Positions 1 to 42,071 of a stretch of 64,000 bases of DNA are shown here, piece by piece (position 1 is the stretch's first letter; the number at the start of each line of letters is the position of its first letter). The stretch is taken from assembly GCA_963695545.1 (NCBI GenBank), contig OY968796.1, forward strand, positions 4,064,001-4,128,000. Direction: 5' to 3'. The notes under the pieces are model-generated. The model was not told the DNA's origin and did not search any database. It saw only the letters and a program-made list of their open reading frames with translations. A program made the position numbers and the translations under genes. The stretch comes from Terriglobia bacterium. GTDB lineage: Bacteria; Acidobacteriota; Terriglobia; Acidiferrales; UBA7541.

Positions 1-1433
1 TAAAGATGGACATAGAGACCGTCGCTCGCAGTGCTGTAAAAATAGCCGGGAAGCGAAGCGATAGTGCGCTCGAAATTCGGCGGGCAGCAAATTGTGCTGT
101 ACCAGGGATTACGAATGGTGACGCCGGCCGACGGATCGAACGCGAGCGGATTGGTGTAGCAATAGAGCGTGCCGCTCAAGGACATTCCGGAATTGATGCC
201 GTTGTACAAAGCGCGCTCGAGCACGTCGGTGAATTTGGCGTCGCCAGTGGCGGCGAGCATGCGCCAATTCCACATCATGCTGCCGATCGCGGCGCAGGTT
301 TCGGCGTAGGCGCTGGCGTTGGGCAACTCGTAGGAAGAGCCGAAGGATTCTCCCTGAGCGCGGGCGCCCACGCCGCCGGTGACGTACATTTTCGTGTCGG
401 CCATGTTGTCCCACAAAGTGTTCAGCGTCTTCCAATACGTTGGGTCGCCGGTCTCGAGGTAGTAGTCGGCGGCGCCGCAGCAGGCATACAGCGCGCGGAC
501 AGCGTGGCCTTCCATCTGCGTGCGCGCGATGAAGGGCGTGCCGGAGAAAAGATAAATGCTCACCTGGCGAAGGACGTGAATGCGATCGTCGCCACCGAGG
601 ATGTAGCCGGCGAGATCGAGGTGACGCTTGTCACCGGTAAGGCGATAGAGCTCGACGAGCGCCATTTCGACTCCCGGATGGCCGGAAATGATGGGCAACT
701 TCGGCGCAGGGCCGTAGGTCGGCAAGACAAAGTCGTTCACCATGCGGATTCCGGCGTCGAGCCACTTGCGATCGCCGGTGGCGCGGTAATAGGCGATGGC
801 GGCGAGCAGCAAGTGGCCCAGGCAATAGAGCTCGTGGCCGGTCTGCTGCGTTTCGGGCGTCATGCTGAGGGCGGCGCGGTCGCCGACGAAGTAGGTGCCG
901 ATGTAACCGCTTGGTTCTTGCGAAGCGGTGACGATGTCGATCACATATTCGGCTTTTTTGCGCAGCTCGGGGCTGTCTCCAGACTGAAGAGTAAAGCCAA
1001 CCGCCTCAGTCCATTTGTAGAGATGGGAATCGCAGCCGACATTGCCGACCTCGGGAGCGTCGCTCTTGCCCTGGAGGCGAAGAAAATTGTTCATGCGGCC
1101 ATGAGCTTCCATGAGGTCGTAGAGGGTCGGCATGCTTTGCGTGACGGTGGCTTCGCGGCGCGGAGCCCAGAAACCAGTTTCGATGGTGACGGCGCGGATG
1201 GGGACGTTGTGAAGCTTGGCGTAGGGTGAGTGCGCGAGGTTCAGGACGCCTTGATCGCGCCAAGAGGGTTGATCGGTGAGCGGGACGGGGGCGTCCTGGC
1301 TCGCCTGGGATGCGGCTTTGGAAGCGCGTCCGGGGGTCGCGGCAAGCGCTCGCTCGGTCGCGGCCAACGATGAGATCGCTGCACTGGAAAGCGCGGACGC
1401 TACGAATTGGCGACGAGTGATGTCCTTCAACAT
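1..1433 (-). CDS. GH127 beta-L-arabinofuranosidase-like glycoside hydrolase, Tat-exported; 3' end runs off the window
   Basis: Missing from the ORF track; translated by hand from ATG at 1433: MLKDITRRQFV (Tat motif), HELYCLGH, EGHAVRALY, GESFG, YAETCAAIG, ERALYNG, CCPPN, which are the GH127 Zn/Cys-nucleophile motifs. Frame stays open to position 1. Confidence 0.92.
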   Translation of the reverse strand, partial: MLKDITRRQFVASALSSAAISSLAATERALAATPGRASKAASQASQDAPVPLTDQPSWRDQGVLNLAHSPYAKLHNVPIRAVTIETGFWAPRREATVTQSMPTLYDLMEAHGRMNNFLRLQGKSDAPEVGNVGCDSHLYKWTEAVGFTLQSGDSPELRKKAEYVIDIVTASQEPSGYIGTYFVGDRAALSMTPETQQTGHELYCLGHLLLAAIAYYRATGDRKWLDAGIRMVNDFVLPTYGPAPKLPIISGHPGVEMALVELYRLTGDKRHLDLAGYILGGDDRIHVLRQVSIYLFSGTPFIARTQMEGHAVRALYACCGAADYYLETGDPTYWKTLNTLWDNMADTKMYVTGGVGARAQGESFGSSYELPNASAYAETCAAIGSMMWNWRMLAATGDAKFTDVLERALYNGINSGMSLSGTLYCYTNPLAFDPSAGVTIRNPWYSTICCPPNFERTIASLPGYFYSTASDGLYVHL

Positions 1434-1487
1434 GGCCGTGCCCCCTGGCGAAGCAGAGTTGCGCGCGAACCTGGCGCGAACGGTGCG

Positions 1488-1519
1488 ATTCTAACACGAA
1501 GGCGCAAGTAAACGATTGC
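1488..1519 (-). promoter_or_regulatory. Promoter of the GH127 gene (extended -10 TGtTAGAAT) with a LacI-type operator over the -35 region
   Basis: ATTCTA at 1488-1493 (TAGAAT on the minus strand, preceded by TG); GTAAACGATTGC at 1508-1519. Confidence 0.6.
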
Positions 1520-1682
1520 CCGTGGGTTGCGGCAATGCGCCGCGCGCAGACTGGCGCAGCAAAACGTTTCGCGCAGATCGCGAGAAGATGACGCGTTGGC
1601 TGGCGCGAAGCGATGGGCGGGGCTGGCCGAGCAGGCACGCGGCGCCTCGGAGCGAGCATCGAAAAAACTGATGCACGGGAGG

Positions 1683-1949
1683 CATACCCCCCTCCCCCCC
1701 GGGGTGTTTTTTGGAACTGTTGATTCTGCTCGACTTTAAGTCCTTTGCGCCAGAACTGGTGATTCTAAAAGGGTTAAAACGCGATTTTTCAGAACTGGTC
1801 ATTCTAAATGAGTTGCAGGCGAAAAGGCCCTGGATTGGGCAATTTTGAAGGCGTTTCGGCGAGGATGTTGGTTCGCGATACATGCTGAACCATAGCACAT
1901 TTATAGCGTATGTGTCAAGGTAATTATATAGCTATTCGAATAGAAATCC
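1683..1949 (-). repeat. Dispersed intergenic element, copy A: palindrome + sigma70 promoter + three 39-bp repeats + G-rich tail
   Basis: CTATTCGAATAG at 1932-1943; TTGACA at 1918-1913; 18-bp spacer; TGcTATGGT; GAACTG(G/T)T(G/C)ATTCT at 1714, 1753 and 1792; homologous to 41723-42071. Confidence 0.7.
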
Positions 1950-2179
1950 TCAGACCTCGCTCTTTTCAGCGCGCATTCGAATTCGCGAGCCGTTCGAAGG
2001 GCTCTCTCCACGGATGCAAGAGCTTGACACCGCAGCGGAGGCGTGCAAAGTTTGGCCGATGAAAGCCGAAAGTGACCGATCGAGGACTAATCCCTTCTTC
2101 CACTCTCTTCGAAGCGGAAAATCGGGCGCGAGATCCGCGGAAACTCCAAAGAACTGCGCGGGCGCCGCATCGGATTGCC

Positions 2180-3376
2180 ATGGGTTCGGATAACCTGCTC
2201 GTCGTTCAGGCGGGCGGGCCGACGCCGGTGATGAACGCGAGCCTCTATGGAGTACTGAAGGAAGCGAACCAGAGTGGCAACGGGAAGGTGCTTGGAGCGC
2301 GGCGCGGTTTGGAAGGATTGATTCAAGGCCGCGTCGTGGATCTTGGCGGGCTGACATCACTGCAACTTGAACGCCTCAGACTAAGTCCGGGCGCGGCACT
2401 GGGTTCCTCGCGGCTGAAACCCTCGGAATCGGATTTCGAACAGACCATTCAAAATCTTAGGAAGCTGGACGTTCGCCGGATATTGATGATCGGTGGAAAT
2501 GGAACCATGCATGCGGCGGAGAAGTTTGGACGTTTCTGCGCGAGCGTGAAGTATGAGGTGCGCATAATCGGAATTCCCAAGACGATCGACAACGATATAA
2601 ACGGCACCGATCGCTGCCCCGGGTACGCCAGTGCGGCGCGCTACGTGGCGCAATCGACGCGCGATCTGGGGATGGATCTTCGTTCGCTGCCGCAGCCGGT
2701 CTCGATTTTGGAGACGATGGGGCGGAACGTGGGATGGCTGGCCGCGGCATCGGTGGCGGGAAAACGATCTGAAGAGAATGCTCCGCATCTGGTTTACGTG
2801 CCGGAAATTCCGTTTGAGATGGAGAGGTTTCTCTCCGATCTGGAGCGAGTGCTCGGAAGGCAGGACTGGGCGATTGTGGTGGTCGCCGAGGGAATCAGGG
2901 ACAAGGCGGGTCGCCCGATTTATGAAGCGGCAGAGGCGTCGCAGGCCGATGCGCTCAGCCGGCCGCTGATGACCGGAGTTGCTCGCGTACTCGCCGAAAC
3001 GGCCGCGCGTGAACTGAAAGTGCGCTGTCGAGACGAGAGGCCTGGGTTGGTGGGGCGAGCATCGATGCTGCACGTTTCGACGCAGGATCTGCGGGATGCG
3101 GAACTCGTGGGAAGGGCGGCATTTCGCGCGGTATGGGCGAATCATGACGCGGAAATGCTGGCGCTGACACCGCTCGATCGCGAAGAAGGTTCCGGATTTG
3201 AGATGGTTCCGTTTGGTTCGGTGATAGGACCCGAGCGAGGGATTCCGGCGGAATGGCTGTGCGATGGCGACATCCCGCTCGACGATAAGTTCAAGAAATA
3301 TGTTGGGCCGTTGATCGGGGACCTCTTGGAATACGATTCTGCCGTCGCGAGCCTGGAGCCACAAGATCGGCCGTGA
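2180..3376 (+). CDS. Phosphofructokinase, PfkA family (PPi-PFK-like group II)
   Basis: QAGGPTPVMNASL, LGSSR, IGGNGT, IPKTIDND, ETMGRNVGWL, VVAEG motifs; likely start ATG at 2180. Confidence 0.9.
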   Translation: MGSDNLLVVQAGGPTPVMNASLYGVLKEANQSGNGKVLGARRGLEGLIQGRVVDLGGLTSLQLERLRLSPGAALGSSRLKPSESDFEQTIQNLRKLDVRRILMIGGNGTMHAAEKFGRFCASVKYEVRIIGIPKTIDNDINGTDRCPGYASAARYVAQSTRDLGMDLRSLPQPVSILETMGRNVGWLAAASVAGKRSEENAPHLVYVPEIPFEMERFLSDLERVLGRQDWAIVVVAEGIRDKAGRPIYEAAEASQADALSRPLMTGVARVLAETAARELKVRCRDERPGLVGRASMLHVSTQDLRDAELVGRAAFRAVWANHDAEMLALTPLDREEGSGFEMVPFGSVIGPERGIPAEWLCDGDIPLDDKFKKYVGPLIGDLLEYDSAVASLEPQDRP

Positions 3377-22530: not shown

Positions 22531-23076
22531 TCACGCCGCGGCCACGACCTTCGTAAACGTCGATTCCAGATCGGACGTCCACGTGACCCCGCCATCTGTG
22601 GACGATTCGTATTTTTGCGTGTATTGCGTCTTGGAGACTTCCTTCCAGGTCAGGCGCGTCTCCATCGGCTTACCTTGCATCAGCGTCTCGGTTGTCCAAG
22701 TCCAAGTGTCGCCGCTGACATTTCCTTTGGCCGTGATCCGTTCGCCCCAACTGTCAAATGAGTCGTAGGTGTACATTTTTGTTTCCGGGTCATAGCCCAA
22801 TACGGCCATGATCGTAAAGTTGCCCGCGGGCGATTTGTTGACCGAATGACCGACAATAAAAAATCCTCCGGACACCCATTCCCACTTTTGAGTTGAGGAC
22901 ACCGGTCCGGCCATACCGTGCGCAGTAGATTTGCCCTCTTCTTTCCAGTTGCCCACAAAATACGCGAGGCGCATCAATTCTGGCCCTGGTTTCGGCGGCC
23001 CTTGCGGAGGCTGCGCCCGCATCGAAACTCCCAGCAACAAAACACTAGCCGCAACCAAACCGATGATTCGTTTCAC
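22531..23076 (-). CDS. Secreted DUF1579-like protein
   Basis: AAGGAGA RBS + GTG; signal peptide; PGPELMRLAYFVGNW, GYDPETKMY, FDSWG, STDGGVTW. Confidence 0.75.
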   Translation of the reverse strand: MKRIIGLVAASVLLLGVSMRAQPPQGPPKPGPELMRLAYFVGNWKEEGKSTAHGMAGPVSSTQKWEWVSGGFFIVGHSVNKSPAGNFTIMAVLGYDPETKMYTYDSFDSWGERITAKGNVSGDTWTWTTETLMQGKPMETRLTWKEVSKTQYTQKYESSTDGGVTWTSDLESTFTKVVAAA

Positions 23077-23184
23077 GGGAGTTCTCCTTAGCGTCTGAAC
23101 CCGCGGCCGCAGCTTTCCAACAGAAATGCGCTCCAACAAAACCGTGCTGGGCAGTTGGCCAAAATCATACGTCCGCCAAAACCT

Positions 23185-23312
23185 TTACGCCAAATCGATT
23201 CCCCGGGACGCGCCCGGGCGTTTGCCGTGCTCCTGCAGACGGCCATGCGGATCGTAGCTCACGCCAACATATAGAGAGCCAGCTGAGCAACGGGGATGTG
23301 GCAATAGAACAT
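23185..23312 (-). pseudogene. GIY-YIG nuclease (YhbQ-like) N-terminal fragment, frameshifted and truncated
   Basis: ATG TTC TAT TGC CAC ATC CC^ CGT TGC reads MFYCHI(L)RCSAGSLYVGVSYDPHGRLQEH, matching YxYILRCxDGSLYxGxTxDxxxRLxxH once one missing base is restored. Confidence 0.75.
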
Positions 23313-23381
23313 GACGAGGAGTGCCCATCGACGCGCCCCGAAAAGCCGGGCTTGCTCGGGACACCATATCCTGGTCGGATG

Positions 23382-23736
23382 TGGTGGAGGCGGGGGGAGT
23401 CGAACCCCCGTCCGAAAAGCGCTACGGCCCGAAGACTACATGCTTAGCGCGTTCGATTGGTTTCGCCGGCGGCGGTTGGAGCGCGCAAGAAACGCCACCG
23501 GCTAGTCCGATTGGTCTCGCCGTTACGTCACGGACCGAGGCGCAACGGCCAGCCTGCTAAATGACGCCTCGTTCAAGCCCGCAGACACTGCTTGAGGAGA
23601 CGGGCTACGCTAGGTTTGTCTAGGCAGCCAAAGCCAACTCAGTGTTGGCAGTTCTAGTTTTCCACCCGATAACGGACAGGTGGCGCCCGGCATGCCTTCG
23701 GGTCGCGACAGCTTCCGTCGAAACCGTGTCGCCCCC
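23382..23736 (-). ncRNA. ssrA: tmRNA; tag peptide (A)ANTELALAA
   Basis: 5' GGGGGCGACACGGTTTCGACG; 3' GACGGGGGTTCGACTCCCCCCGCCTCCACCA; tag ORF at 23649-23620; 355 nt; extended -10 TGtTAGAAT just upstream. Confidence 0.97.
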
Positions 23737-41542: not shown

Positions 41543-41722
41543 CCGGCCGCTCCCTTTCGCTTGTAAGCACTCGATTTTCGACTCCTCGCCCCCTCACTGC
41601 CCACAGAACGGAGAAGCGTCCGAGAGCAATTCCACGAAACCCAGCAGGCGCCACAAGCCGTAACGCGCGACTCGAACCCCTGCCGCACATCGCCCTCGCG
41701 CAATCTCGTTTCGAAATCCTGT

Positions 41723-42071
41723 GGATATCTATTCAAATAACTTATAAATAATATTGACAATACTGTATAATTCGTGATATGTTTGCATGTGATCCGCAGA
41801 CTTACACCTTCGCCGCTCGAAGCGCCCCGTACCTCCCCGATCCACCGGCGTTCAAACCACACCTATCCGTAGAAAATCGTCTCTCCAAACCTTTTCTTTT
41901 CAACCTCATCCACATCTCTCCAGAGGCGTGCACAACACATTGAAAAAACCAGACATAGCCATTTTCGTAACCGACTTGTTTTCAATCAATTGCGCACTCC
42001 TACCCCACTCTTCTCCCGGAAATCCCCTATTTTCATCTTCTTACGCAAAACGTACCCGGGGTGTGGGGGGT
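41723..42071 (+). repeat. Dispersed intergenic element, copy B
   Basis: GGATATCTATTCAAATAACT; TTGACA at 41754; 18 bp; TGaTATGTT; TTTTCA motifs; tail CAAAACGTACCCGGGGTGTGGGGGGT; homologous to 1683-1949 (minus strand). Confidence 0.7.

Follow-up and report, generated by a model that had tools for sequence, protein, structure and literature searches.

A dispersed family of intergenic promoter cassettes with a predicted leaderless, stop-free reading frame in a Terriglobia genome

Overview

The stretch analysed in this study, hereafter the window, comprises 64,000 nucleotides of the genome of a Terriglobia bacterium (GenBank assembly GCA_963695545.1, contig OY968796.1, positions 4,064,001 to 4,128,000 of the forward strand). 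It contains two similar AT-rich intergenic islands about 40 kb apart, copy A and copy B, which a preliminary description had proposed to be a dispersed multi-copy element with its own promoter. An nhmmer search of the genome, a single contig of 4.16 Mb with 60.6% G+C (designated G000:C1), bore out this proposal and yielded a cassette family of 116 loci. The cassettes possess a modular anatomy, a start codon at a fixed position, a stop-free frame behind it, a C-rich and G-poor spacer, and a distribution that extends over several genera. We somewhat favour the interpretation that each cassette is a portable promoter joined to a leaderless translated leader, which would carry RNA polymerase and ribosomes into the downstream DNA. 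Among the three possibilities raised earlier, namely, a non-coding RNA (ncRNA), a leader and a non-autonomous mobile element, the leader fits best. An effect on downstream expression is inferred from the features of the DNA, mobility of the cassettes is plausible, and the ncRNA reading is weakly supported. The family, which appears to be new, would combine two known kinds of element, mobile promoters and leaderless leader open reading frames (ORFs). No description of it was found in the literature searched on leaderless genes, transcription start sites, intergenic repeats and miniature inverted-repeat transposable elements (MITE) or REP sequences of Acidobacteria.

Abundance and anatomy of the cassettes

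The genome was searched by BLAST with either copy, which returned dozens of matches, and then by iterated nhmmer; single-module E-values reached 1e-41. The 5' module was recovered 81 times, the A-type 3' module 25 times and the B-type 91 times. Both modules stand in the same order and orientation at 78 of the 116 loci; 35 loci have a 3' module only and three a 5' module only. The 76 copies that were analysed in full are 225-534 nt long, with a median of 327 nt.

On the upstream side stand one to three TTCGAA motifs, often accompanied by ATTTCCACAG in either orientation. The box, (C)TATTCGAATA, is followed by approximately 18 AT-rich bases, TTGACA, 17-18 nt, the extended -10 element TGnTAnnnT and, five bases on, the start codon RTG (R being A or G). 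The promoter so formed is close to the sigma-70 consensus. Across 40 aligned copies, the invariant or near-invariant columns are TCGAAT (at least 90% conserved), TTGAC, the TG and TA of the extended -10 and the TG of RTG. Past the start codon lie approximately 30 moderately conserved bases, a spacer of variable length and the 3' module. The spacer contains 39% C and 23% G, compared with 29% and 29% for all intergenic DNA. The A-type module consists of two or three units of about 40 nt, ends in AAAAAACACCC with a G-run, and is followed by the conserved GGTTTTTTCGAT. The B-type module forms a long imperfect hairpin (AAAAGAGUGCG...UGAAAA...UUUUCA...CGCACUCUUUU) and ends in TTACGCAAAACATACCGGGGGT. 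The 12 members of one subfamily agree at about 90% in promoter and 3' module, but the intervening spacer has drifted much further, which points to selection on each copy.

The box TATTCGAATA occurs 49 times in the genome against approximately 0.9 expected. An operator of a regulon outside the cassettes was considered for it and ruled out, because 45 of the 49 occurrences fall inside cassette loci.

In the longest cassette (genome 3770907-3771591, approximately 685 nt), the spacer contains a unit of about 150 nt three times in tandem. One 5' module without a recognised 3' module (G000:C1 1205256-1205330, minus strand) lies approximately 240 nt upstream of a small gene, which by eye appears from its translation to encode ribosomal protein L28.

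A fixed start codon and an open frame

The start codon stands 5 nt after the -10 element in all 76 copies (ATG in 50, GTG in 25 and TTG in one), and this position places it at or beside the predicted transcript start. Between the start codon and the cassette end, with the first 6 nt omitted, the 76 copies together hold four stop codons in frame 0, compared with 130 and 200 in frames 1 and 2. Frame 0 is fully open from start to end in 72 copies, and copy B is one of the four exceptions. Copy lengths vary widely, and the phase must therefore be maintained. The unequal ORF lengths of copies A and B had been taken as an argument against a conserved protein. This argument holds for the protein, but the open frame itself is conserved and copy B is exceptional.

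The open frame also extends beyond the cassettes. Past the cassette end, frame 0 provides the longest open run in 44 of the 76 copies (p 1e-5). Where a co-directional gene starts at least 30 nt past the cassette (48 cases), the interval is stop-free in frame 0 in 30 cases and in each of the other frames in 15 (p 6e-4). Genes and their start codons were taken from a purpose-made crude gene finder (3467 genes, 87% coding). Among 57 co-directional cases, the leader ORF stops between -16 and +13 nt from the predicted downstream start in 21, and about 12-13 leaders run on in frame into the next gene.

Conservation extends to the nucleotides and to the openness of the frame but not to the encoded peptide. 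Three reading frames of the B module are in use (41, 8 and 5 copies), so that the upstream arm of its hairpin is translated as CKRVRNSLK in some copies and as LQKSAHLIE in others. The A-type module is read in a single frame in 16 of 16 copies, and its other two frames contain stops. Entropy by codon position is 1.12/1.03/1.04 for the B module and 0.38/0.53/0.55 for the A module, with no excess at third positions. The ORF of copy A matches no Pfam family and has one homologue, a hypothetical protein of 74 aa, among 5.8 billion proteins. The non-conservation of the peptide follows from these three readings of the B module, the lack of codon periodicity, the lack of a Pfam family and the single homologue. 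Purifying selection on amino acids, as expected of a conserved protein family, was not found in the cassette ORFs, whose translations show His-rich (HTHPHS) stretches and AT-rich stretches of rare codons.

The two copies in the window

The features of the two copies are as follows (window coordinates).

1656..1955, minus strand: copy A, a whole A-type cassette with box, promoter, predicted leaderless start, spacer, A-type 3' module and conserved tail
1932..1943, minus strand: box CTATTCGAATAG of copy A, a perfect 12-nt palindrome read from the sequence
1889..1918, minus strand: predicted promoter of copy A, TTGACA / 18 nt / TGcTATGGT (consensus scan, 10 of 12 plus TG)
1491..1883, minus strand: predicted leaderless ORF of copy A, ATG at 1883-1881, 130 codons, stop TAG at 1493-1491 (reading-frame translation)
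1687..1821, minus strand: A-type 3' module of copy A, built of two or three units (each about 39-45 nt; TTTAGAATCACCAGTTCTG...AAGGACTTAAAGTC), with the end AAAAAACACCCCGGGGGGGAGGGGGG
1433..1530, minus strand: own promoter and 5' region of the GH127 gene, outside the cassette (homology with two cassette-free relatives)
41710..42071, plus strand: copy B, a whole B-type cassette (nhmmer and Infernal matches)
41729..41740, plus strand: degenerate box CTATTCAAATAA of copy B, with TTCGAA (41710-41715) and CTGTGGATAT (41719-41728) upstream
41754..41783, plus strand: predicted promoter of copy B, TTGACA / 18 nt / TGaTATGTT (consensus scan, 10 of 12 plus TG)
41789..41872, plus strand: predicted leaderless ORF of copy B, GTG at 41789-41791, 27 codons up to the stop TAG at 41870-41872, an interrupted frame (four such among 76)
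41921..42071, plus strand: B-type 3' module of copy B, an imperfect long hairpin and a CT-rich stretch, then ...TTACGCAAAACGTACCCGGGGTGTGGGGGGT

In genome coordinates, nhmmer matched the 5' module of copy A at 4065871-4065943 and its A3 module at 4065687-4065821; the corresponding matches of copy B are 4105729-4105801 (5' module) and 4105983-4106062 (B3 module). Copy B was also matched at 4105716-4105819 (E 1.9e-13) by the Infernal model R1, a sequence-only model of the 5' module. The hairpin of copy B has its 5' arm around GAGGCGTGCACA...TTGAAAAAAC and its 3' arm at GTTTTCAA...TTGCGCACTCC.

The correspondence between the two islands was reproduced as it had been described. Their first 20 nt agree at 17 positions (GGATTTCTATTCGAATAGCT, 1949-1930 on the minus strand; GGATATCTATTCAAATAACT, 41723-41742), and TTGACA lies 31 nt from the left edge in both (1918-1913, minus; 41754-41759, plus). 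An 18-nt spacer and an extended -10 element follow (1897-1889 in copy A and 41775-41783 in copy B), the start codons stand 5 nt further on, the ORFs have the lengths of 130 and 27 aa claimed for them, and both copies share the end ...ACCC(C)GGGG..GGGGGGT. The conserved unit is longer than was first delimited. Copy A continues to GCATCAGTTTTTTCGATGC at 1674-1656, and alignment of the 3' ends extends its conservation through GGTTTTTTCGAT; copy B begins earlier, with the extra TTCGAA and the CTGTGGATAT motif. Column identity between A and B is 68% overall, with real likeness confined to the ends. A consensus scan found one promoter-like site per 1-kb stretch around A and B, compared with a mean of 0.2-0.3 in shuffles.

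The GH127 gene downstream of copy A has its own promoter, as had been supposed. This promoter is conserved in two relatives of the same genus (G003 and G004) that lack the cassette at this place, where the upstream homology reaches window position ~1521-1522 and covers both the -35 and the -10. The cassette is thus an added upstream unit. The stop codon of the copy A ORF sits within the -10 of the GH127 promoter (TAGAAT), 57 nt 5' of the GH127 ATG at 1433.

In short-read contigs from the source habitat, depth over the copy A 3' module is 130-270 and that of the flanks 5-10, as expected of a repeat. Four DNA contig sets of one study over window positions 1000-2600 contain no joints and no indels, and their contigs break at the repeat.

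Genomic context

All but about a dozen of the 116 loci are wholly intergenic; where they overlap a gene call, the overlap is mostly short or the call is small and probably spurious. The loci lie between tandem genes in the same orientation (46) or in the opposite orientation (18), between divergent genes (38) and between convergent genes (14). These counts match the share of intergenic bases per class (277, 164 and 60 kb), and the only departure is that co-orientation prevails between tandem genes (46 of 64, p 6e-4). The 3' end of a convergent gene is faced by 32 of the 116 loci.

The 57 co-directional downstream genes are mutually unrelated. They encode, among others, RelA/SpoT, LigA, AroA, TypA, isocitrate dehydrogenase (icd), FabH, ThiI, MoaA, MoaC, LpxD, ribosomal protein S21 (rpsU), DegP, MsrB, PIMT, a Usp protein, the encapsulin shell protein and HpnJ; many of them serve in stress response or repair. 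Both GH127 paralogues also have a cassette upstream, and an amidase gene lies behind copy B. The 3' module of copy A is 80-90% identical over 120-170 nt to at least ten other loci in BLAST searches, and the genes behind such copy A-like modules are non-paralogous (RelA/SpoT, LigA, AroA and others). Its similarity thereby reaches the identity used to define putative mobile promoters (at least 80% over at least 50 nt, upstream of non-paralogues). The cassette 3' end lies 18-408 nt from the downstream start predicted by the crude gene finder; the interval used for putative mobile promoters is -150 to -50.

The two GH127-like paralogues (window 1-1433, minus strand, and G000:C1 137265-139397), each with an A-type cassette upstream, match the aceric acid hydrolase model below its cut-off. 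Their cassettes are the best full-length pair of copies, with 80% identity over 266 nt, and the cassette was therefore probably duplicated together with the gene. A gene for an IS1595-family transposase (G000:C1 246628-247554, minus strand) lies downstream of the A-type cassette at 247701-248048.

Open frames through convergent genes

The leaderless frame remains open for at least 900 nt antisense into the facing gene or genes in nine of 18 convergent settings. This set was obtained after removal of four rows with short spurious antisense calls overlapping the cassette and addition of one case with zero penetration. As a control, every gene of at least 900 nt was entered from its 3' end, where a random frame was open in 5.4% and the best of three frames in 16% (p 1.2e-7 and 8.7e-4, respectively). 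The facing genes are real, since Pfam families were recognised in ten of 11, including EPSP synthase, SIS domain, aminotransferase, ABC ATPase, fumarase and EF-G. The nine loci, including G000:C1 2899828-2903691, have cassette-started stop-free frames of 440-1287 codons. One frame of 1287 codons runs antisense through three genes and merges with a DUF5715 gene, and another, having crossed a ZIP transporter gene, stops 4 nt inside the co-directional gene that follows. A lactate permease gene of another genus is traversed antisense by a frame of more than 500 codons. This signal is striking and far above the control.

Distribution in related genomes

Model R1 was run on 61 sampled genomes of the bacterial family, and matches were obtained in 15. 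Within the genus of the window genome, at least 57 copies were found in G000 (the window genome itself), at least 57 in G003, 40 in G004 and 18 in G001. Five genomes of four other genera contained 15 (G008), 23 (G018), 17 (G053), 10 (G034) and 7 (G042) copies, with single weak matches elsewhere. A replication sample of 30 loci from five genomes of these four genera was examined, of which three failed the promoter pattern. In the remaining 27, RTG is in place without exception, and frame 0 is open for at least 200 nt in 25, compared with four and five for the other frames. Median open lengths by frame are 480, 43 and 95 nt.

Copies of one genome resemble one another more than those of other genera, as the printed 5' modules of G018, G042 and G008 illustrate. 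Cassettes occupy the same place in two species at four loci (L002, L007, L013 and L018). In G003, the place orthologous to that of copy B is occupied by a cassette of like orientation, whose 3' module, however, is A-type. Presence differs between species of one genus at the GH127 locus and at locus L015, where G003 has a cassette and G000 has none and where the intergenic DNA is too diverged to define the ends.

RNA structure

The statement that the element belongs to no named family agrees with the Rfam search, in which the whole window gave only a tmRNA at gathering score. With E up to 10, the two copies gave five chance-level matches, all far below gathering scores, and twenty further copies gave none with E up to 0.01. 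Copies A and B fold no better than shuffles (z -0.13 and -0.57). RNAalifold found no structure in 91 B-type 3' regions, and just two 5-bp helices in 24 copies. Across 24 copies, 86% of the cells of the B hairpin are paired, compared with 33-63% when the partners are slid, and no covariation was detected. The B hairpin is thus real as an inverted repeat and, lacking covariation, may function at the level of RNA, of single-stranded DNA or of protein binding. A structured ncRNA therefore lacks support, since the folding scores are those of shuffles and covariation is absent from the sole conserved hairpin.

The 3' arm of the B hairpin is tandemly doubled in columns 152-173 of alignment A3 (CACACTCAT / CGCACTCTTT, or GCGCACTCTTT / CTCACTCTTTT). 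The 5' arm could pair with either arm, which leaves room for alternative structures.

Mobility and neighbouring repeats

In the alignments, the left end of the cassette (TTCGAA boxes, CTGTGGAAAT) is unrelated to the right end (ACCGGGGGT...), and terminal inverted repeats are thus absent. The aligned flanks of the subfamily of 12 copies show no sign of a target duplication, and no clean pair of a filled and an empty site was found. No copy with a transposase gene between its 5' and 3' modules was found; the only long copy has tandem repeats there. The cassettes, 225-534 nt in length, contain a single long imperfect hairpin in B-type copies and not the two short, oppositely oriented hairpins of a REP pair.

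The genome contains six RAYT-type Y1 transposase genes, two of which exceed the NCBIfam cut-off.

G000:C1 1198842-1199456: RAYT-like gene
G000:C1 1424782-1425324: RAYT-like gene
G000:C1 1474387-1474944: RAYT-like gene
G000:C1 1475749-1476336: RAYT-like gene
G000:C1 1478770-1479357: RAYT-like gene
G000:C1 about 1387492-1387803: RAYT-like gene

These genes lie at four places, 0.5-1.9 kb from a cassette; random positions fall within 1.7 kb of one 9.5% of the time. Three of them form a unit of approximately 930 nt that is 85-86% alike and flanked by inverted repeats of 120-170 nt. The repeats, which contain the hairpin CCCATCCTTTGTCCGC/GCGGACAAAGGGTGGG, are distinct in sequence from the cassette, and copies of them also occur directly upstream of two cassettes.

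A separate REP-like repeat, GCCCCGTAGGGGC(GACACA) with a GTAG tag, has 43 copies, all of which are intergenic. Thirteen of them are found no more than 200 nt from a cassette and in most cases upstream of it. Examples of the repeat lie upstream of the cassettes at G000:C1 103375, 1299532 and 2548694 and at positions 790-890 of locus L025 (G003).

Proposed mode of action

In the interpretation that we somewhat favour, transcription would start at the purine of RTG, and 70S ribosomes would initiate at the same RTG without a leader. Ongoing translation would shield the C-rich RNA from Rho-type termination and melt the hairpin of the 3' module. Read-through into the neighbour would then depend on translation, and the cassette would act as a translation-gated second promoter in front of genes that have their own. 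The TTCGAA boxes would bind a common regulator.

In a bolder version, which we regard as rather doubtful, the cassettes would act as a 'translated launch pad' that spreads by itself. One regulator shared by the TTCGAA boxes would fire approximately 100 promoters simultaneously, and leaderless ribosomes would give immunity to Rho. Co-directional genes, among them many for stress response and repair, would be switched on, and long translated antisense RNAs would run through convergent genes, whose antisense stops would be cleared by selection on synonymous sites, thereby producing a genome-wide, ribosome-gated regulon from a mobile leader. As further speculative possibilities, the A module might form CsrA-type GGA hairpins, the leaders might sense His or rare codons, and the B module might serve a NusG paralogue as loading site.

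Several points weigh against the proposed promoter-leader role. The distribution over the intergenic classes is proportional to intergenic length, as random insertion would give, and the loci that face convergent genes indicate that not all copies can serve to drive a downstream gene. Where a leader continues in frame into the following gene, enzymes such as phosphoglycerate mutase would be lengthened by 100-240 residues, which looks costly. Stops 4 nt inside the next gene had been considered as a sign of translational coupling; this was dropped, because ATGA starts give approximately eight of 57 by chance once the frame is open, the number observed, and the cluster was not counted as evidence. 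Distances to gene starts are approximate, since the gene finder is crude. Copy B, with its stop after 27 codons and its degenerate box, may be in decay. A canonical intrinsic terminator was not found in either window copy, and with no covariation in addition, the attenuator step is purely inferred.

Alternative explanations

A selfish non-autonomous mobile element (MITE-, REPIN- or IS200/IS605-PATE-like) with an incidental outward promoter would bring the host no gain, and its open frame would merely lower the harm of insertion. We consider this explanation unlikely, although it accommodates the high copy number, the closer likeness of copies within a genome, the differing presence among same-genus species at the GH127 locus and L015, and the spread of loci over intergenic classes by length. 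It would also suit the six RAYT genes, which lie near a cassette at all four of their places when about one in ten random positions does so, and the RAYT-flanking repeats upstream of two cassettes. However, genes intervene between RAYT and cassette at two of the four places, the ends are unlike with neither terminal inverted repeats nor a visible target duplication, and no near-identical full-length pair exists, the best being the pair before the GH127 paralogues. Conservation of the promoter, the start codon and the 3' module contrasts with the drift of the spacer, and L002, L007, L013 and L018 hold their place in two species. Small regulatory RNA genes, an explanation that we find quite unlikely, would have a strong promoter that yields an RNA of 200-450 nt with the open frame as a by-product; the variable 5' part would pair with targets, and the conserved 3' module would be a scaffold or protein-binding site. 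The 3' modules are indeed conserved at the nucleotide level whatever the frame, the B module has a long conserved hairpin, a conserved T-run follows the G+C hairpin region at the end of A-type copies, and 32 of the 116 loci have no co-directional downstream gene. Composition alone does not explain four stops against 130 and 200 or the invariant RTG, and the open frame extends past the conserved 3' end. In addition, the window copies fold like shuffles, the B-type copies have no terminator-like site, and almost no RNAalifold consensus structure, no covariation and no Rfam match were found.

Genuine genes for small or disordered proteins (about 60-290 residues) could account for the start codon in all copies and the long open frame. 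All A-type copies yield a similar repeated peptide (...FRITSSGAKDLKSFRINTSKKHPGG...), and a related peptide occurs in another genus (G008). We judge this possibility very improbable, because the B module uses three frames, codon positions show no conservation pattern, and neither a Pfam family nor more than one homologue among the 5.8 billion proteins was found. The stop positions are fixed by the flanking DNA and not by the element, and many frames cross real genes antisense. A chance resemblance of two AT-rich promoter regions, to which we give virtually no credence, had nothing in its favour beyond the low complexity of AT-rich DNA and is refuted by the 116 loci, their E-values and the matches in other genera.

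Comparison with known systems and implications

Putative mobile promoters were reportedly introduced by Matus-Garcia, Nijveen and van Passel in 2012. Like the cassettes, they are closely similar non-coding DNA upstream of unrelated genes, also between genera; a rewiring of expression has been proposed for them, without an established route of spread (PMC3575422). They differ in being defined by similarity only (80% over 50 nt, from -150 to -50) and in occurring mostly in pairs (PMC3575422). The cassettes have more than 100 copies, a defined anatomy and two alternative 3' modules, and a quarter of them face no gene start.

Correia elements, ERIC and REPINs are dispersed intergenic sequences that can carry promoters and can be co-transcribed with their neighbours; they are bounded by terminal inverted repeats or consist of paired REP hairpins, and a TA duplication is typical of Correia elements. 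By comparison, the cassettes have unlike ends, no visible duplication and a predicted translated frame. All three are named in the commentary on putative mobile promoters (PMC3575422).

Leaderless initiation and its regulatory use are established in mycobacteria. Leaderless initiation there requires an ATG or GTG at +1, which is also sufficient (PMC4633059), and leaderless short ORFs serve as attenuators that tie loci into a 'ribulon' (10.1101/834739). The Cys ribulon shares with the cassettes an RTG at the first base (predicted here), an unannotated ORF as first cistron, a common design across loci and, as we would expect for the cassettes, control of downstream genes by leader ribosomes (10.1101/834739). 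The ribulon ORFs, by contrast, are short and locus-specific, contain runs of a single codon with a defined RNA duplex that hides the ribosome site of the following gene, and are not repeats (10.1101/834739). The cassette leaders, of 27-291 codons or more, are members of a single dispersed family and often continue into the following gene or through it antisense; they show no obvious regulatory codon run, although no systematic search for codon runs or duplexes was made.

In trp, his and pyrBI attenuation and in Rho polarity, the leader ribosome decides on hairpin formation or Rho loading. The C-rich, G-poor spacer of the cassettes likewise resembles a Rho loading site. Unlike the classical systems, the cassettes have no canonical terminator that was found and a leader without a Shine-Dalgarno sequence, and copies of one and the same design precede more than 50 unrelated genes. 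Rickettsia palindromic elements are repeats selected for an open frame and translation, which lie inside genes and lack a promoter and start codon. The open frame is common to both, and only the cassettes carry a promoter and start codon.

If the promoter-leader interpretation is correct, a whole bacterial family would rewire housekeeping and stress genes (relA/spoT, ligA, aroA, typA, icd, fabH, lpxD, rpsU, degP and msrB) by one copied module, in which a promoter is joined to a leaderless leader that is free in sequence but constrained in frame. The cassettes would then offer a natural system for the translational protection of transcripts from termination and for the spread of promoters without a classical transposon, and a test of selection that clears stop codons from the antisense strand. 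For annotation, gene callers miss the cassette frames or fuse them to the next gene, thereby adding 100-240 spurious residues.

Other features of the window

The tmRNA gene found by Rfam (174.8 bits) lies at window positions 23382-23736 on the minus strand and encodes the tag ANTELALAA. A second tmRNA call by ARAGORN (22954-23478) overlaps the first and is probably spurious.

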